The position numbers and the translations under genes were made by a program. The notes beneath the pieces are model-generated. The model saw only the letters and a program-made list of their open reading frames with translations, was not told the DNA's origin and ran no database searches. From positions 1 to 56,574 of IMG/VR virus record IMGVR_UViG_3300020151_001596: a stretch of 56,574 nucleotides of DNA, one strand, 5' to 3'. Source of the DNA: a virus (lineage: Duplodnaviria > Caudoviricetes). Shown in pieces: positions 2,002-15,352 of this stretch. Position 1 is the first letter of the stretch, and the number at the start of each line of letters is the position of its first letter.

Positions 2002-3575
2002 GTGAAAATGTAAATTTAAAAGAAGTCATAAGACAGGAGTACATTAAGTGCTTAAATGATCCTGCTCACTTTATGAGGAAATACTGTCACATTCAGCATC
2101 CTCAACGTGGTAGAGTATTATTTAATTTATATCCTTTTCAAGATAAAGTATTACATTTATTTAGAGATAACCCATACTCAATTGTATTAAAATCTCGTCA
2201 GTTAGGTATATCAACATTAGCCGCAGGTTATTCTTTATGGTTAATGTTATTCCAAAAAGACAAAAACGTACTTTGTATTGCAACTAAGCAGGAAACTGCT
2301 AAAAACATGGTTACAAAGGTTAAGTTTATGTTTGATAATTTACCTTCATGGCTTAAAATATCAGCAGATGAACATAACAAATTAACACTACGATTAAGTA
2401 ACGGATCACAAATCAAAGCCACTTCAGCATCAAGTGATGCAGGTCGATCAGAAGCAGTATCTTTGCTAATTGTCGATGAGGCCGCTTTTATTGAACAAAT
2501 TGGAGAAATATGGGCATCAGCACAACAAACATTAGCTACAGGTGGTGGAGCAATTGTACTTTCAACACCGTATGGAACTGGAAATTGGTTTCATAAAACA
2601 TGGGTTTCAGCTGAAAGTGCTGAAAATGATTTTTTACCAATTAAATTACCTTGGTTTGTTCATCCTGAACGAGATGAGGCTTGGAGAAAACGTCAAGATG
2701 AATTATTAGGAGATCCTAGATTAGCATCTCAAGAGTGTGATTGTGATTTTAGTACATCAGGAGATATTGTATTTTATAATGAATGGTTAGATTTTATTAA
2801 AGAAACAACAATACAAGAACCAGTTGAAAGAAGAGGAGCTGACCAAAATTTATGGATATGGGAACCTGCAGATTATACACGTGAGTATATGGTAGTAGCA
2901 GACGTAGCTAGAGGTGATGGTAAGGATTTCTCAACTTTTCATGTGATGGATATAGCAACTAATACTCAAGTTGCTGAATATAAAGGACAAATGTCACCTA
3001 AAGAATTTGGGTATTTTATAGTAGCTATTGCTACTGAATATAACCAAGCTCTTTTAGTAATAGAAAATGCATCTATTGGATGGGCTACTATAGAATCAGT
3101 ATTAGAAAGAGGATATAGAAACATCTATTATTCACTTAAGAGTGATACTTTAACAGTTGATTCGTATTTTAATAAGTATGAAAACAGTGATAATGTTACA
3201 CCAGGATTTACTATGTCGTTAAGAACTAGACCTTTAGTTGTAAATAAGTTCCGAGAATATGTTGGAGACAAATCAGTAACAATTCGCTCAAAAAGGTTAT
3301 TAGAAGAAATGAAAGTATTTATTTGGAAAAATGGTAGACCAGAAGCACAAATTGGTTATAATGACGACTTAGTTATGCCTTTTGGTATTGCTATGTATTT
3401 AAGAGATACATCATTAAAATTCCAACAACAATCTCATGACTTAACAAGAGCAACTTTAAATAATTTTTCAAAAGGTAACACTGGATTTTCTGGTGTATAT
3501 GGAAGTAGTGGTGTTCCTAATCCTTATTCAATCCAAACAGGTACTGGAAATGAGGACATCAGTTGGCTTTTATAA
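1998..3575 (+). CDS. terL: Terminase large subunit (T4 gp17-like)
   Basis: LYPFQ Q-motif, KSRQLGIST Walker A, LLIVDEAAF Walker B, STPYG coupling motif, nuclease motifs ADVARGDGKDFS and YNDDLVM. Confidence 0.95.
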   Translation: MSENVNLKEVIRQEYIKCLNDPAHFMRKYCHIQHPQRGRVLFNLYPFQDKVLHLFRDNPYSIVLKSRQLGISTLAAGYSLWLMLFQKDKNVLCIATKQETAKNMVTKVKFMFDNLPSWLKISADEHNKLTLRLSNGSQIKATSASSDAGRSEAVSLLIVDEAAFIEQIGEIWASAQQTLATGGGAIVLSTPYGTGNWFHKTWVSAESAENDFLPIKLPWFVHPERDEAWRKRQDELLGDPRLASQECDCDFSTSGDIVFYNEWLDFIKETTIQEPVERRGADQNLWIWEPADYTREYMVVADVARGDGKDFSTFHVMDIATNTQVAEYKGQMSPKEFGYFIVAIATEYNQALLVIENASIGWATIESVLERGYRNIYYSLKSDTLTVDSYFNKYENSDNVTPGFTMSLRTRPLVVNKFREYVGDKSVTIRSKRLLEEMKVFIWKNGRPEAQIGYNDDLVMPFGIAMYLRDTSLKFQQQSHDLTRATLNNFSKGNTGFSGVYGSSGVPNPYSIQTGTGNEDISWLL

Positions 3576-9082: not shown

Positions 9083-9224
9083 CGATTTTGAAATATTTTG
9101 ATATACGTATACCCGACAAATATGCTATTTCTATATAGCATTTAGATTTTAAATATCTATTACGCTTCGAGCAATCTATAATAAGCGTACTTCCAACAAA
9201 AATTATTTGAGGACAAACAACAAA

Positions 9225-10298
9225 ATGGCAAACAGAGACTTATTAAAAGAAGCCATTGCCGATGCTAAAGCTGTTAAGGAAACAGCCATCGCCAATGCAA
9301 AGGCCGCTCTTGAAGAAGCTTTCACCCCCTACTTAAAAGAAAAGTTAGCTGCAAAGTTAGCTGAAATGGATGAAGTGGATGAAGCTAAAGAAGAGATGAC
9401 CGAAATTACCCAACAGGAAAAGGAAAATACATACAATCCCAATTACGGAATGGATGAAGCTAATGAAGCTGAAGACGATGAAGCTGATGAAAAAGTAGAT
9501 GAAGTAGATCTAGAAGAACTTCTAAGAGAATTAGATGAATTAGAAGAAGATGGATTTGGTAAATTTTCATCAGACGGAACTGAAGGATTCAGTGGTGAAG
9601 AAGATGGTGAAAAGAAACTTCAATTGAAAGCTTTAGATGAAGCTGAAGGTGAAGAAGAATTTGAAGATTCTGATGCTGATGGTGTCGAAGATTCAGAAGA
9701 TGAAGAAATTGATCTTGAAAACATGTCTGAAGACGATCTTAAGAATTTCATTGAAGGTGTAATCGCAGACATGGTAGCCTCCGGCGAATTAGAAGGTGGT
9801 GAAGACATGGAAAGCGAAGAAGGTGAAGGAGAAGATGAAGAAGGTGCTGAAGGTGAAATGGAAATGGGTGCTGAAATGATGGCCGAAATGAAGAAAATGA
9901 AAAAAGAAGTAGAAGAAGCTAAAAAAGCTAAAGAAAAAGCTGAAAAAGAATTAAAAGAAGCTTTAGAAACTGTTTCTACTATCAAAACTGAACTTCAAGA
10001 GGTTAATTTATTCAACGCTAAATTACTTTACACTAACAAAATCTTCAAAGCTAAAACCTTAACTGAATCACAAAAAGTTAAAGTGTTAGAAGCTTTTGAT
10101 AAAGCCGCTAGCGTTAAAGAAGCTAAATTAGTTTTCGAAACATTATCATCTGGTTTAACAGCTACTGCTAAAAAGCCAATGAATGAATCGTTAATTAAAA
10201 GTAGTGCTTCTAAACCATCCGGTGTTTCTGAAAAGAAACCTATTATGGAAGCTAATGAACAGGTTACAAGATGGCAAAAATTAGCCGGTATTAAATAA
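9225..10298 (+). CDS. Prohead scaffolding/core protein
   Basis: Very acidic coiled-coil protein between protease and capsid, ending RWQKLAGIK. ATG 9225 is preferred over TTG 9207. Confidence 0.8.
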   Translation: MANRDLLKEAIADAKAVKETAIANAKAALEEAFTPYLKEKLAAKLAEMDEVDEAKEEMTEITQQEKENTYNPNYGMDEANEAEDDEADEKVDEVDLEELLRELDELEEDGFGKFSSDGTEGFSGEEDGEKKLQLKALDEAEGEEEFEDSDADGVEDSEDEEIDLENMSEDDLKNFIEGVIADMVASGELEGGEDMESEEGEGEDEEGAEGEMEMGAEMMAEMKKMKKEVEEAKKAKEKAEKELKEALETVSTIKTELQEVNLFNAKLLYTNKIFKAKTLTESQKVKVLEAFDKAASVKEAKLVFETLSSGLTATAKKPMNESLIKSSASKPSGVSEKKPIMEANEQVTRWQKLAGIK

Positions 10299-10330: not shown

Positions 10331-11995
10331 ATGTCACAAGTACAACAATTATTAGAGAGCGCTGCAGGTTCTTGGAAGAGCTTGCAAAGCGACGCAGCCA
10401 AATTGGCCAACAAATGGACCAAAACTGGCTTATTGGAAGGTTTGACCGAGGTTGATAAAAATAATATGTCAATCTTGCTTGAAAACCAAGCTAAACAGTT
10501 AGTAACAGAAGCAAACCAAATTTCTACTAACTCTTATTTCACTAACGGTACCCAAGGTGAGAACTGGGCTGGTATCGCTTTACCTTTGGTTCGTAAGGTA
10601 TTCGGAACTATTGTAGCGAAAGAATTCGTTTCAGTTCAACCTATGAACATGCCTTCAGGTCTTGTATTCTTCTTGGATTTCCAATATGGTAATTATAAGA
10701 CTCCTTTTGGAACAGGTGGATCATTATATGGTGACAGAAACGCTTCTGGTCCATTCCCATTTGCAACTCCTGCTGCTTCTGGTGGTCTTTACAACCCAGC
10801 TAACAAATTCACTTATTCTATTAACACTACTCAATCTGTAGTATCTGCTACTGTAGCTACTGCTTCTTGGGCTGAAGTAAACTTTGATTCTGAATTATCA
10901 GCTTCTATTGCTGCTGGTACTATCAAGAAATTCACAGTTGCTTCTGCTGTTACTACTTTACCTTTCTTTGATGCTGATTCTACTAGAGGTTTCGCCTTAA
11001 CTTCAGGTTCAACGTTCACAGTAGGTAGAGCTTTACCTCAGTTTACTACTTACAACTACACTGCTAACACTATCGCTTTCTTCTTGACTGGTTCAACTGC
11101 TGAAACTAACGGTACTGCTACTTCTGCGGGTTCTGTTGTAACTTATGTTAAAGCTACTTCTGATCAATACAGAGGTGATTTCGAAGAATCTTCTTCTTTC
11201 GCTGTACCTAACGCTCAGAGTGCTACTCAAATTACTATTCCTGAAATCAACGTTAAGATGCAATCTCAAGCCATCACTGCTAAGACTCGTAAGTTGAAAG
11301 CTGTATGGACTCCTGAATTTGCTCAAGATTTAGCTGCTTACCAGAACATCGATGCTGAAGCTGAATTGACTAACATCATGAGCGAGTACATTTCAATGGA
11401 AATTGATTTGGAAATCTTAGATATGTTGATTGAAGATGCTGCTGCTGGTACTGAGTACTGGAGTGCTATTAACAACACCGTGATTACTCCTGGTGCTGCT
11501 GCTCCTTCTACTTTGTCTTCTGGTTACTACAACACTCAAGGTCAATGGTTCCAAACTTTAGGAACTAAGATCCAAAAGTTAAGCAACAAAATTCACCAAT
11601 TAACTTTGCGTGGTGGTGCTAACTTCTTGGTTACTTCTCCTACAGTTGCTACTGTTCTTGAATCAATCCCTGGTTTTGCTTCTACTTCAAACGGTGAAGC
11701 TGAGCAAATGGAGTATGCTTTCGGTGTACAAAAAGTAGGTTCAGTTAATGGTCGTTACAAGGTTTACAAGAACCCTTACATGACTGAAAACGTAATCTTG
11801 TTAGGTTACAAAGGTTCACAATTCTTGGAAACTGGTGCTGTATTTGCTCCTTACATTCCTATGATTATGACTCCTTTGGTGTACGATCCTGATACCTTCA
11901 CTCCACGTAAAGGTCTTTTGACTCGCTACGCTAAGAAGATGTTACGTCCTGAATTCTATGGTAAGATCTATGTTAATGGTTTAAACACCATCTAA
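10331..11995 (+). CDS. Major capsid protein (T4 gp23-like)
   Basis: LPLVRKVF, VSVQPMNMPSGLVFFLDF, AKTRKLKAVWTPEFAQDLAAY, APYIP, FTPRKGLLTRYA; high-expression codon bias (TTC/AAC/TAC). Confidence 0.96.
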   Translation: MSQVQQLLESAAGSWKSLQSDAAKLANKWTKTGLLEGLTEVDKNNMSILLENQAKQLVTEANQISTNSYFTNGTQGENWAGIALPLVRKVFGTIVAKEFVSVQPMNMPSGLVFFLDFQYGNYKTPFGTGGSLYGDRNASGPFPFATPAASGGLYNPANKFTYSINTTQSVVSATVATASWAEVNFDSELSASIAAGTIKKFTVASAVTTLPFFDADSTRGFALTSGSTFTVGRALPQFTTYNYTANTIAFFLTGSTAETNGTATSAGSVVTYVKATSDQYRGDFEESSSFAVPNAQSATQITIPEINVKMQSQAITAKTRKLKAVWTPEFAQDLAAYQNIDAEAELTNIMSEYISMEIDLEILDMLIEDAAAGTEYWSAINNTVITPGAAAPSTLSSGYYNTQGQWFQTLGTKIQKLSNKIHQLTLRGGANFLVTSPTVATVLESIPGFASTSNGEAEQMEYAFGVQKVGSVNGRYKVYKNPYMTENVILLGYKGSQFLETGAVFAPYIPMIMTPLVYDPDTFTPRKGLLTRYAKKMLRPEFYGKIYVNGLNTI

Positions 11996-12027
11996 TATAA
12001 CTTAGAAAGGATAATTTTCTTATAAAG

Positions 12028-12054
12028 AAGCCCCGAGAAATCGGGGCTTTTTTT
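12028..12054 (+). terminator. Intrinsic terminator after capsid gene
   Basis: AAGCCCCGA-GAAA-TCGGGGCTT followed by a T run. Confidence 0.9.
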
Positions 12055-12074
12055 AACTAGTATAGACCTATATA

Positions 12075-12083
12075 ATATTTATA
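12075..12083 (+). promoter_or_regulatory. ATATTTATA putative late promoter for the amidinotransferase-psd-phoH unit
   Basis: TAATATTTATAACAAA, the same context as the copies before portal and 7552. Confidence 0.65.
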
Positions 12084-12112
12084 ACAAATATAGTTACATC
12101 AAATAGATTTTT

Positions 12113-13027
12113 ATGAAAGAGACACCAAGTCAGTTACCAATTCAAAGTTTCGTTATGAACTTTCCTTTCTCATTATCAACAGCAGACCCAAATAATATTT
12201 GGATGCAAGAATTAACCGATGAGGAATTAGCAATTAATAAACCTAAAGCATACAAACAATTTATGGATTTGTATAATTTTGTTGCTGGTGGTGCTATAGT
12301 TAATTTATTACCCTCAGAAGGAAACTTTCAGGATCAAGTATATGTAGCTAATTTAGGTCTTTATTTACCTCATATTAAAAATGAAAACCACATTATTTTA
12401 TCAAATTTTACTTCTGACCCTCGTAAAGGTGAAGAATTAGTTGGAGAAAAATATTTTAACCAAATGGGTTATAAAACAGCAATCTCTCCATATAAATGGG
12501 AAGGTGAAGCTGATTTGAAATATCTTTATGGTAACAAATATATTGGTGGTTATGGTATTCGTTCTAACATCAAAGCCTATGAGTGGATGGAAGAAACTTA
12601 TAACATGGATATTCTTAAAGTAGCTATGGTTGATGAGTATTTGTATCACTTGGATTGTTCTATTTTTGCTTTAAATCAAGATCAGACATTAATTTGTACT
12701 GAATTGTTTGATGAGGAAGAATTACAAATGATTGAAAAAGAAACAGAAATTATTGATATTGATGTTGATGATGCTTTATGTGGATTAACCAATTCAGTAA
12801 GATTAGGTAATATGATTATGTGTGCTTCAAACATTGCTGAATTAAAGAAAACCCATGAATATTATGAGGGTGAGGTTCATAAGATTAAAACATTAGAAAA
12901 AATTTGTTCTGATGCTGGTATGGAACCTGTTATCTTTAATCTTTCAGAATATATGAAATCAGGTGCTATGTTATCTTGTATGATGATGCATTTGAATAGA
13001 GTTGACCATAATAAAACCTTACTATAA
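12113..13027 (+). CDS. Amidinotransferase/guanidino-modifying (pentein) family enzyme, ArgZ/AgrE-like
   Basis: DQVYVAN, RKGE, WEGEAD, YHLDC and C-terminal SEYMKSGAMLSC match the Asp-His-Cys pentein catalytic motifs. Confidence 0.85.
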   Translation: MKETPSQLPIQSFVMNFPFSLSTADPNNIWMQELTDEELAINKPKAYKQFMDLYNFVAGGAIVNLLPSEGNFQDQVYVANLGLYLPHIKNENHIILSNFTSDPRKGEELVGEKYFNQMGYKTAISPYKWEGEADLKYLYGNKYIGGYGIRSNIKAYEWMEETYNMDILKVAMVDEYLYHLDCSIFALNQDQTLICTELFDEEELQMIEKETEIIDIDVDDALCGLTNSVRLGNMIMCASNIAELKKTHEYYEGEVHKIKTLEKICSDAGMEPVIFNLSEYMKSGAMLSCMMMHLNRVDHNKTLL

Positions 13028-13764
13028 TGGCACAAACATTACAAGAGTGGTTAAGTACTGAGGTTAAACAACTTCAAAAAATGCCTGTAGGTGAGTTGTC
13101 TAATACCTTTTTCTTTAGAGACCCAATCCGTCCGAACTTTATTGACTATGAGCATTTTTATTCACCTGCTGATGGAACTATTTTATATCAAAGATTTATT
13201 AAAGATCCTACAGAACCTGTAGTTGAAATTAAGGGTATGAATTATACTCTTCAAGATGTTATGGGTGATGATGAATACAATAAACCATCATTAGTTATTG
13301 GTATATTTATGTCGTTTTATGATGTTCACATCAATCGTATACCTTACGGAGGTCTGCTGTCATATAAACCACTAGACGCGATTCAATCAACTAATAAGCC
13401 AATGTTGGCTACCGAAAAGGATATTTTAAATAAAAAAATTAACCCCGCAAACATGGAGTACTTAAAGTATAACGAGCGTATGTGGAATAAAATTTATTCA
13501 CCTGCCTTAGATTATACTTATTACTTAATTCAAATTGCTGATGAGGATGTAAACGTTATTGCTCCATTTACTATGGACCAAAACGATGTTTTTGCTCAAA
13601 ACGAAAGATTTTCTTTAATTAGATGGGGTTCACAAGTTGATTTGGTGTTACCATTAGATGATAGATATGATTTCGAGTTATGTTTAGATGATGCCATGCA
13701 TGTTAATGCTGGTTTAGACCAACTTGTAAAAATTAACTTTAATGAATACAAAACCAACTCATGA
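13027..13764 (+). CDS. psd: Phosphatidylserine decarboxylase-family pyruvoyl enzyme (substrate uncertain)
   Basis: FFRDP, SPADG, IFMSFYDVHINRIP and the autocleavage motif WG|SQVDL; TAATG coupling to the upstream gene. Confidence 0.85.
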   Translation: MAQTLQEWLSTEVKQLQKMPVGELSNTFFFRDPIRPNFIDYEHFYSPADGTILYQRFIKDPTEPVVEIKGMNYTLQDVMGDDEYNKPSLVIGIFMSFYDVHINRIPYGGLLSYKPLDAIQSTNKPMLATEKDILNKKINPANMEYLKYNERMWNKIYSPALDYTYYLIQIADEDVNVIAPFTMDQNDVFAQNERFSLIRWGSQVDLVLPLDDRYDFELCLDDAMHVNAGLDQLVKINFNEYKTNS

Positions 13765-14437
13765 AGATGTTATCTTCCAAGAAAAACGAAGACCTAAAAA
13801 TCCCATTAAATTTAAATTAAATCTAAACGAGGAACAAAAAGAAGCTAAGTCTAAAATCTTAAATAATACAATTACTTTATTAGCAGGAGCTGCTGGTTCA
13901 GGTAAAACTTTACTTGCTTGCCAAATTGCTTTAGATAAATTGTTTATGAAAGAAATTGATAAGGTAATTATTACTCGACCTACTGTCTCAAAAGAAGAAA
14001 TTGGTTTTTTACCTGGTGATTTAAGAGAAAAAATGGATCCTTGGGTACAACCAATCTACCAAAACATGTATTTACTTTATGATAAAGATAAAGTAGAAAA
14101 ACATATTCAAGCTGGTGATATTGAAATTGTACCTTTATCATTTATGCGTGGTAGAACATTTGTAAACAATTTTGTAATTGTAGATGAAGCACAAAACGTA
14201 ACTCACGAACAAATGCATATGATTGTTACTCGTATTGGTTTAAATTCAAAAATGATTATTTGTGGTGATGATGCTCAAGTGGATTTAAAGAAAAGATCTG
14301 ATTCTGGATTTAAATTTTTATATAAAGGAGCATCAAAAATCAAAAAACTAGAAGCTATTACTTTAAAAACAAATCATAGAGATCCTATTGTAGAGGATTT
14401 ACTTAGATATTACGACGATTCTGCCATCACTATTTAA
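13742..14437 (+). CDS. phoH: PhoH-family ATPase
   Basis: GAAGSGKT, ITRP, IGFLPGDLREK, FMRGRT, DEAQN, TRIG, GDDAQVDL, HRDPIV. Confidence 0.95.
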   Translation: MNTKPTHEDVIFQEKRRPKNPIKFKLNLNEEQKEAKSKILNNTITLLAGAAGSGKTLLACQIALDKLFMKEIDKVIITRPTVSKEEIGFLPGDLREKMDPWVQPIYQNMYLLYDKDKVEKHIQAGDIEIVPLSFMRGRTFVNNFVIVDEAQNVTHEQMHMIVTRIGLNSKMIICGDDAQVDLKKRSDSGFKFLYKGASKIKKLEAITLKTNHRDPIVEDLLRYYDDSAITI

Positions 14438-14866: not shown

Positions 14867-15352
14867 ATGGCAAACAATAACGTAGATCCACAACTACCTA
14901 TACTATCAGTAATTGAAGTAGCATCACCAGGACCTATGGGTCCTACAGGTCCTACAGGACCTCCAGGTTCTTTTCCTAGTACTGGTTCCTACTCCTTAAC
15001 AGGTTCAATTAAAATCTCAGGATCATTCCAGTTAGATGGTGAAGTATTTATTACTGGTTCTTTTACTGGTAGTTATTTACATATTCAAGGAACTCCATTA
15101 AATACTTGGACTGTAAATCATAACTTACAAACTGAATTTCCTGTTGTTGTGGTTTATGATTTAAATAAAAAGCAAATCATTCCACAAGAAGTTATTCCTT
15201 TAAATACTTCTAGTATGAAAATTTTCTTCCCAAGAGAAGAATCAGGATATGCTTATTTTTCTATAGGAACTAACTTAGCTATTCCTAACTTTGCAAACAT
15301 ATCAAACTCAGGCTCAAATTTTAACCCATCAATAATTGTATTTGGATTTTAA
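14867..15352 (+). CDS. Fibre protein with short collagen-like stretch
   Basis: GPMGPTGPTGPPG triplets and a TWTVNHNL..P.V.V.D fibre-type domain. Confidence 0.65.
   Translation: MANNNVDPQLPILSVIEVASPGPMGPTGPTGPPGSFPSTGSYSLTGSIKISGSFQLDGEVFITGSFTGSYLHIQGTPLNTWTVNHNLQTEFPVVVVYDLNKKQIIPQEVIPLNTSSMKIFFPREESGYAYFSIGTNLAIPNFANISNSGSNFNPSIIVFGF

Follow-up and report, generated by a model that had tools for sequence, protein, structure and literature searches.

We describe here two adjoining genes of a tailed virus (Duplodnaviria; Caudoviricetes), one for a pentein enzyme resembling the arginine dihydrolases ArgZ and AgrE and one for a protein of the phosphatidylserine decarboxylase (PSD) family, and we consider what the pair might do. 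The stretch in which they lie, called the window below, is the 56,574 nucleotides (nt) at positions 1 to 56,574 of IMG/VR virus record IMGVR_UViG_3300020151_001596. The record is estimated to be 35% complete, its GC content is about 31%, and profile searches find in the window a T4-like structural module with terminase, portal, prohead protease and a gp23-type capsid protein. In our judgement it is likely that the two genes form one metabolic module making a soluble amine derived from arginine; on the best reading they are not a lipid enzyme plus a companion. The locus is laid out as follows.

10331..11995, plus strand: major capsid protein of the gp23 type, the upstream neighbour (PF07068 Gp23, E 3.3e-76; phrog_138)
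12024..12056 (about), plus strand: hairpin and T run resembling an intrinsic terminator (GCCCCGA-GAAA-TCGGGGC; fold energy -20.4 kcal/mol)
12075..12083, plus strand: ATATTTATA, a promoter-like motif 30 nt before the pentein start, common to structural genes and with a putative promoter function
12113..13027, plus strand: pentein, ArgZ/AgrE-like, 304 amino acids (aa) (open reading frame, PDB sequence search, AlphaFold2 (AF2) model and Foldseek)
13027..13764, plus strand: soluble PSD-fold protein, presumably a pyruvoyl-dependent decarboxylase, 245 aa (PF02666, AF2 model)
13742..14437, plus strand: PhoH-like ATPase, 231 aa (PF02562, E 5.5e-64)

The stop of the pentein gene and the start of the PSD-like gene share the letters TAATG; the first 23 nt of phoH lie inside the PSD-like gene. 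The hairpin behind the capsid gene (12024-12056) was missed by a simple terminator scan and was recognised by reading the sequence. An earlier note on this DNA had described the TAATG coupling, a motif behind the capsid terminator and a run into phoH, and all three are seen in the sequence. The core of the motif, TATTTATA, occurs 20 times on the plus strand of the window and once on the minus strand. The total of 21 on both strands is not above chance (18.2 expected); what stands out is the strand bias and the positions. Thirteen of the 20 plus-strand copies lie at most 30 nt upstream of the start of an open reading frame, mostly in the extended form ATATTTATAAC, and such sites precede the portal gene and other structural genes. 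The extended motif, ATATTTATAAC(A)AA, recurs over 3575-54978, for instance at 3575, 5482, 7539, 12075, 14456, 15353, 29977, 40369, 42906 and 44554, and is probably a late-type promoter of this phage group. Because the motif is strand-biased and placed before structural genes, the pentein-PSD-phoH unit is probably under the same regulation as those genes; the pentein and the PSD-like protein would then be expressed late.

The pentein is ArgZ/AgrE-like by sequence and by fold, as the earlier note had read from motifs, and every catalytic residue that could be mapped is kept. Pfam gives only a weak match, to DDAH_eukar (PF19420, 31.1 bits against a cut-off of 23). NCBIfam ranks arginine dihydrolase (Arg_dihydro, NF052232, 85.7 bits, cut-off 450) before bifunctional ArgZ (NF052231, 82.8 bits, cut-off 1025) and the DDAH equivalog (79.2 bits, cut-off 300), all far under their cut-offs. 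When PDB chains were searched with phmmer, all six matches were to ArgZ and AgrE (6/6, E 1e-14 to 1.6e-13), and a profile of the pentein family reached them at 2.6e-18 to 3.2e-15. The matches span only the first 230-290 residues of the ArgZ/AgrE chains, which are about 700 residues long. The AF2 model, built from an alignment of 34 sequences, has a predicted local distance difference test (pLDDT) score of 94.4. Foldseek places it on ArgZ/AgrE with E 1.4e-22 to 3e-20, a template modelling (TM) score of 0.89-0.90 on the ArgZ domain and a root-mean-square deviation (rmsd) of 2.2 A (for 6jv0: E 2.3e-22, TM 0.89, rmsd 2.2). The next family is DDAH, from 8.5e-13, followed by amidinotransferases, AstB and agmatine deiminase.

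The motifs D..V..AN, R.GEE, EG..D, GYG.RS, YHLD and the C-terminal SE..K.G...C align with those of ArgZ/AgrE. Residue by residue, D74, N80, R104, E107, E130, R150, H179, D181 and C289 of the pentein correspond to D65, N71, R90, E93, E118, R139, H168, D170 and C264 of ArgZ, and all nine are invariant in 34 of 34 homologues (37-84% identity). PDB entry titles describe an intermediate trapped in ArgZ N71S and a C264S form with substrate, which marks N71 and C264 as mechanistic. Cys289, encoded at 12977-12979, is the predicted nucleophile of the window protein. R104 and R150 are, we assume from arginine deiminase, the residues that bind the alpha-carboxylate of the substrate; since both of these presumed carboxylate binders are kept, the comparison favours arginine rather than agmatine as the pentein substrate.

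The known enzymes nearest to the pentein are thus ArgZ (Synechocystis Sll1336) and AgrE (Anabaena Alr4995), whose N-terminal pentein domain (PDB 6juy, 6jv0, 6jv1, 6lrf, 6lrh) shares the fold and the mapped residues. Identity over the structure alignment is about 22%. The window protein differs in that its 304 residues stand alone, without the C-terminal part resembling ornithine cyclodeaminase. It is also partnered with a decarboxylase, and it is found in phages and beside bacterial exporters rather than in the cyanobacterial ornithine-ammonia cycle.

The second protein matches PF02666 (PS_Dcarbxylase) with 82.5 bits against a gathering cut-off of 22 (E 4.1e-23), whereas all 15 NCBIfam PSD equivalog models that it matched stay below their cut-offs, the best with 69.9 bits against 183. 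The motifs on which the earlier note relied (FFRDP, SPADG, the His and the Gly/Ser site) are indeed present, as FFRDP, SPADG, YDVH and RWG/SQ. Across 40 diverse family members FxRDP, SPADG, KG and YDVH.NR are kept, together with the RWG/SQ cleavage site, and at least 90% of these members have D49, G50, H101 and G201-S202. Self-cleavage is predicted between Gly201 and Ser202, encoded at 13627-13632, with His101 and Asp49 also present. What the protein does not have is a membrane anchor. Its highest 19-residue Kyte-Doolittle value is 0.95, compared to 2.78 in a true short PSD from a psd-pssA-plsX-fab operon, which has a hydrophobic segment before its FYRDP motif. The maxima of the 40 family members have a median of 1.15 and do not exceed 1.79. 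The earlier note had seen a polar sequence before FFRDP and had taken the protein for a PSD-family enzyme without an anchor. The Pfam match, the model and the hydropathy values agree with this, and we predict a soluble decarboxylase.

The PSD-like protein has, in addition, a segment of about 50 residues that is missing from the true short PSD and in which polar positions specific to the family (N123, E130, N149, R151) are conserved. Its AF2 model (pLDDT 91.8) has the PSD fold, with E. coli PSD as the nearest structural neighbour (Z 13.0, rmsd 4.2, 176 residues aligned), followed by PsiD (10.7) and Ao-ADC1 (10.5). E. coli Psd (PDB 6l06, 7cnw-7cnz) and short Psd proteins of the PRK05305 type share with it PF02666, the fold, FxRDP, SPADG, the His and the Gly-Ser site. 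It differs from the true short Psd in showing only 24-28% identity, in lacking the anchor, in its extra residues and in having no phosphatidylserine (PS) synthase partner. A search of 1.84 billion cluster representatives retrieved 585 at E<=1e-3 and 95 at <=1e-30, nearly all of them about 240 aa long and aligned from residue 1. Because so few representatives match, nearly all of this length and from the first residue on, the PSD-like protein is, as judged from its sequence, a member of a distinct family apart from the true PSDs.

Some of the longer forms among these relatives deserve mention. A fused pentein-PSD protein was considered as evidence of linkage and rejected, the long forms among the representatives being inteins or fusions to other domains. 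In some homologues (P0244, P0371) the decarboxylase is interrupted by an intein of the LAGLIDADG type, and in Campylobacter phages a homing endonuclease gene overlaps the 3' end of the decarboxylase gene. In two long gene calls, P0248 and P0247, the decarboxylase is combined with other domains, in one case an ADP-ribosyltransferase exoenzyme domain and in the other an anti-CBASS Acb1 domain; these may be real fusions or read-through gene calls. The depositors of the Campylobacter phage NCTC12673 noted for its PSD-like gp085 (L168) a similarity to Saccharopolyspora erythraea SACE_0607 and to ORF 12 of AF210249. This likeness is a possible lead to the substrate of the decarboxylase. AF210249 is an antibiotic biosynthetic cluster.

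If the PSD fold is to act on a free amino acid, this would not be without precedent. Ao-ADC1 of Aspergillus oryzae, also a PF02666 protein, is a pyruvoyl-dependent arginine decarboxylase without pyridoxal phosphate and without PSD activity, according to the available part of the report on it (PMC12904898). PsiD of Psilocybe is a tryptophan decarboxylase of the PSD fold according to the titles of PDB entries. The earlier note's statement that some PSD-fold enzymes use free amino acids is borne out by these two, as far as the available part of that report and the entry titles go. Ao-ADC1 (PDB 9jer, 9jf5) and PsiD (8x4q, 8zia) resemble the window protein in what is proposed for it. They differ in being eukaryotic, with chains of 346-382 residues and 10-14% identity to it, and no pentein partner is given for either in those sources. 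A search of PDB sequences with the decarboxylase profile did not retrieve Ao-ADC1.

Linkage of the two genes across related genomes had been set beforehand as a test in the earlier note, and the pair is linked both in phages and in bacteria. In 77 of 80 related IMG/VR loci the pentein gene immediately precedes the PSD-like gene, and the remaining three end at a contig edge; the order capsid-pentein-PSD-phoH holds in the same 77. A smaller family alignment used as query returned the same 80 close loci only. The distant representative P0317 found nothing among viral contigs, and the decarboxylase of Bacteroides phage SJC03 found one locus, on a contig that ends before the pentein. A search of 50,697 phage records with the PSD-like protein gave 39 Campylobacter and 6 Bacteroides phage records, and one with the pentein gave 40 Campylobacter, 6 Bacteroides, 1 Ralstonia and 1 Xanthomonas. 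Two other members of the decarboxylase family retrieved the same 45 phage records, with a single extra weak match for one of them.

The pair is adjacent in six Bacteroides phages: directly so in SJC03, and with about 100 nt between the genes in DAC16 and DAC23 (tblastn). About 40 Campylobacter phages have both genes unlinked, 43 kb apart in NCTC12673. The SJC03 pair is flanked by primase and HNH genes on one side and by dCTP-deaminase-like and IMPDH/GMP-reductase-family genes on the other, while the two genes of NCTC12673 adjoin those for the gp41 helicase and gp45 clamp, and for GroES and UvsW. We note for SJC03 that the dCTP-deaminase/dUTPase-like gene and the IMPDH/GMP-reductase-family gene follow right after the pair (L001, 8838-10317). 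In Campylobacter phages of the Fletchervirus type, dG is replaced by deoxyinosine.

A clade of the pentein from other metagenomes provided 80 loci of bacterial type, with GC contents of 0.41-0.70. In 70 of these the PSD-like gene is directly upstream of the pentein gene, which is the reverse of the phage order. Nine of the other ten have at most 120 nt of sequence upstream, and the last, L219, has 495 nt without a match. Two long loci have ordinary chromosomal genes on either side. The window pentein and PSD-like protein show 48-50% and 49% identity, respectively, to the bacterial-type proteins, compared to 40 and 37% for the Bacteroides phages and 38 and 41% for the Campylobacter phages. Pairwise identities of the two proteins correlate with r = 0.947 over 74 loci, a value reached by 0 of 999 permutations. 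Prediction of a complex, from alignments of our own, gave a median score of 0.59, with 0.00 for the best of three controls, run-to-run contact agreement of at least 87% and a partner pLDDT of at least 84. Of 80 solved complexes 58 pass the mark set for a complex, compared to 2 of 110 mismatched pairs; among those that pass, just 7 of the solved complexes but both mismatched pairs score 0.60 or lower. The prediction thus lends weak support to the two proteins touching each other.

The bacterial loci add a third gene. In all 53 of those with at least 1000 nt downstream of the pentein gene, an exporter comes next: a MATE protein in 47 (one example has 194 bits on TIGR00797, cut-off 147) and an ABC exporter with a fused membrane domain in six. 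Since two unrelated exporter types occupy the same position, the arrangement points to a module product that is soluble and leaves the cytoplasm; a small cation would suit. In one low-GC lineage (4 loci) there follow genes for a PotD/PotF-like, polyamine-binding type of protein, which at 182.7 bits stays under its equivalog cut-off (582), and for a hybrid sensor kinase. The PotD/PotF-like neighbour is a hint towards polyamines.

These settings bear on the suggestion in the earlier note that the enzymes are made late, for packaging. The promoter-like motif that the pair has in common with structural genes speaks for it in this lineage; the replication and nucleotide genes around the pair in SJC03 and NCTC12673 and the exporter in bacteria speak against it. 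The suggestion is lineage-specific, because other phages have the genes in a replication setting, and packaging is not the general role of the pair, because its bacterial version comes with an exporter.

What reaction sequence could these enzymes carry out? The pentein would hydrolyse the guanidino group of free L-arginine to give L-ornithine, CO2 and 2 NH3 by way of a thiouronium intermediate on Cys289. The PSD-fold protein would cleave itself between Gly201 and Ser202, generate a pyruvoyl group and decarboxylate ornithine to putrescine. In the phage, which has no exporter with the pair, the product would accumulate in the infected cell; the host could extend putrescine to spermidine, and the uses would lie in DNA replication, in translation and in neutralising the packaged DNA. 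Bacteria, whose pair is followed by an exporter, would secrete the product. This route from arginine through ornithine to putrescine is favoured because the pentein resembles ArgZ at each residue mapped, because the decarboxylases of this family are soluble, and because PSD-fold enzymes acting on free amino acids exist. We infer from these likenesses what the substrates are, which step comes first, what is produced and what the product is for. That the route is exactly this one we put at slightly under an even chance.

Several points weigh against it. The pentein is far below every curated cut-off that would name a function, and its substrate may differ from that of ArgZ; the role given above to R104 and R150 is assumed from arginine deiminase. 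The fold of the decarboxylase is slightly nearer to E. coli PSD than to PsiD or Ao-ADC1. A correlation of identities is expected for any co-inherited pair of genes and is no proof of a shared pathway. Neither AdoMet_dc (PF02675) nor Spermine_synth (PF01564) was found in any of five related phage genomes (0/5 each; carboxyspermidine genes were not searched), so that the polyamine context in the phage is something we infer. Because the related phages have neither S-adenosylmethionine decarboxylase (AdoMetDC) nor spermidine synthase, any steps beyond putrescine would be those of the host. In two other phage lineages the neighbouring genes serve replication and nucleotide metabolism, a setting that would be compatible with a role in DNA chemistry as well. 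An exporter beside the pair is unusual for a plain supply of putrescine and would also fit a secreted guanidino compound, and the known PSD-fold arginine decarboxylase would fit another order of steps.

In that other order the PSD-fold enzyme would be an arginine decarboxylase making agmatine, which the pentein would convert either directly to putrescine or to N-carbamoylputrescine, to be finished by an amidohydrolase of the host. The only PSD-fold enzyme known for a basic amino acid, going by the available part of PMC12904898, is an arginine decarboxylase, a structural neighbour of the window protein at Z 10.5. The decarboxylase gene comes first in bacteria, and agmatine deiminase is also a pentein, lower in the fold list (6b10, E 7e-10). 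However, the pentein matches ArgZ/AgrE about ten orders of magnitude better than agmatine deiminase, and in the phage its gene comes first. Both arginines aligned to ArgZ R90 and R139 are kept in 34 of 34 homologues, while agmatine has no alpha-carboxylate for them to hold, if they act as in arginine deiminase. We regard this order as quite unlikely. Nor do we think it likely that the pentein is an amidinotransferase or a plain deiminase and that the pair makes another nitrogen-rich amine (a guanidino-amine, N-carbamoylputrescine derived from citrulline, or a secreted metabolite), serving in the phage for modification of DNA or protein or for counter-defence. Homologues are named amidinotransferase or DDAH in databases, and SxtG, HsvA and AGAT have the same fold (E about 1e-11), but ArgZ/AgrE is the closest by far in sequence and fold, and Asn80, which corresponds to ArgZ N71, is invariant; the covalent intermediate is trapped when N71 is mutated. 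The coupling to an exporter (53/53) resembles small clusters for secreted products. DNA modification would agree with the replication and nucleotide genes around the SJC03 and NCTC12673 genes, with a gene of the QueD/PTPS type in four of five related phage genomes (G002-G005, loci L255-L258) and with the fully modified guanines of the cultured relative immuto, as given in the available part of PMC10516641. Yet the closest relative, G001, has the pair without a PTPS match, immuto has modified DNA without the pair, and no DNA-transferase partner was found beside the pair.

Could the second protein be a real phosphatidylserine decarboxylase that remodels host membrane lipids, with the pentein unrelated or modifying a lipid head group? 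It passes the Pfam PS_Dcarbxylase threshold, has E. coli PSD as its best structural match (Z 13.0) and is annotated as PSD in public records, and the MATE and ABC exporter groups include lipid flippases. But the anchor that a true short PSD has is missing from the window protein and from all 40 family members, the PSD equivalog models are all far below cut-off, and about 50 extra residues bring in the conserved polar N123, E130, N149 and R151. The neighbouring transporter is a true MATE by TIGR00797, and the protein is strictly coupled to an arginine-type enzyme. The earlier note had remarked that no PS synthase lies nearby, and this extends to the related phages: CDP-alcohol phosphatidyltransferase (PF01066, the PS synthase type) was found in none of the five genomes, although PS synthase of the PLD type was not searched and the host has its own lipid enzymes. 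Four of these five genomes are at least 90% complete, and the PF01066 search was positive in 13 of 14 control genomes. We consider a lipid enzyme very improbable, and a module for a soluble arginine-derived amine remains the reading that we prefer.

The QueD/PTPS-type gene of G002-G005 fits the 7-deazaguanine DNA reported for immuto in the available part of PMC10516641. TGT (PF01702) and IMPDH-family proteins were found in none of the five related phage genomes, where a very distant DpdA3 could escape such a search. A link to thymidine hypermodification was considered and rejected, as no supporting gene was found.

Judged by capsid and phoH DNA, the closest cultured relative of the window phage is Flavobacterium phage immuto (72.9% identity over 31% of the query), and a metagenome-assembled genome (MAG) assigned to Flavobacteriales includes a contig with a copy of the decarboxylase 74% identical to that of the window. 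For these two reasons the host is likely of the Flavobacteriia type. A profile of the PSD-like family found no convincing member in 401 sampled Bacteroidota genomes: the three matches at E<=1e-15 are one phage-like contig and two weak ones, the latter in genomes without the pentein. A profile scan of genome contigs gave just three loci, two of them phage-like contigs binned in MAGs and the third a true psd. Since no convincing member was found in those 401 genomes, the likely host phylum does not look like a recent donor of the pair, among the genomes searched.

In immuto the slot between the capsid gene and phoH (L002, 4471-6394) is filled by two other genes; one encodes a 'tail fiber protein' of 89 aa and the other a hypothetical protein of 546 aa. 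Because the slot carries other genes there, the pentein-PSD pair is a cassette, and the slot seems to be a site of frequent gene exchange. PhoH is in the same transcription unit here and follows the pair in related contigs, and it is not beside the pair in bacteria or in SJC03. Two RNA-library runs, X2 and X3, contain one contig each that joins window position 11958 to 13782, from the end of the capsid gene to phoH, skipping 1823 bases (the short side has just 38-45 letters and the likeness threshold is 85%). Because of these contigs, relatives without the enzyme cassette seem to exist. Contigs from the RNA libraries of two studies match segments of the pentein and decarboxylase genes with 85-99% likeness; they come from relatives and possibly from DNA, give neither a transcript start nor its level or timing, and we did not count them as expression. 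All shares of words in this comparison were small, for RNA runs 0.17 at the highest, and no habitat is named from them. Elsewhere in the window, a 363-aa, extremely acidic (Glu/Asp-rich) protein, probably a scaffold, is encoded at 9207-10298 between the prohead protease and the capsid gene, and its counterpart in immuto is annotated 'DNA polymerase phi-like'. A small open reading frame at 14867-15352 contains a collagen-like Gly-Pro-Thr run (GPMGPTGPTGPPG) and has weak matches to virion-protein PHROGs.

Phages depend on polyamines for packaging and replicating their DNA and for translation, and only a small number of routes to putrescine, all well mapped, are known. A survey of polyamine metabolism in viruses (Li et al. 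2023, PNAS, PMC9992855) describes, in its main text, phages with putrescine-forming enzymes, including pyruvoyl-dependent ornithine and arginine decarboxylases. Those pyruvoyl enzymes, according to the same text, derive from AdoMetDC/SpeD and not from PSD. Enzymes like the present pair are not named in it; arginase was not found in phages, and agmatine deiminase and N-carbamoylputrescine amidohydrolase were found in chloroviruses only. The words dihydrolase, amidinotransferase, Campylobacter and Bacteroides each have 0 occurrences in the main text, supplements not included. Our literature searches, which did not extend to supplements that may name such proteins, found no paper describing the pair, an ornithine decarboxylase of the PSD fold or an arginine dihydrolase from a phage. 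What can be described here is a virus-encoded metabolic module, put together from known folds and putatively of polyamine type.

A more far-reaching suggestion can be made, one that we hold tentatively and think somewhat doubtful. The two genes might be a self-contained, two-enzyme putrescine route consisting of a stand-alone arginine dihydrolase and the first PSD-fold ornithine decarboxylase, possibly in a physical complex. Such a unit would be mobile. It would be coupled to an exporter for secretion in bacteria of widely differing GC, with a PotD-like protein and a sensor kinase in one lineage, and three unrelated phage lineages would have captured it without the exporter as a means to raise the polyamines of the infected cell.

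If correct, this would be a new route to putrescine from two enzyme families in unexpected use, and it would give the PSD fold a third class of substrates. Cluster representatives at E<=1e-5 number more than 2400 for the PSD-like protein and more than 1800 for the pentein, and thousands of records from phages and metagenomes that now bear the names 'phosphatidylserine decarboxylase', 'DDAH' or 'amidinotransferase' would have their annotation corrected. The pair would then count as auxiliary metabolic genes that T4-like phages of aquatic habitats carry in abundance. Its exporter-linked version in bacteria hints at secreted polyamine production or signalling.

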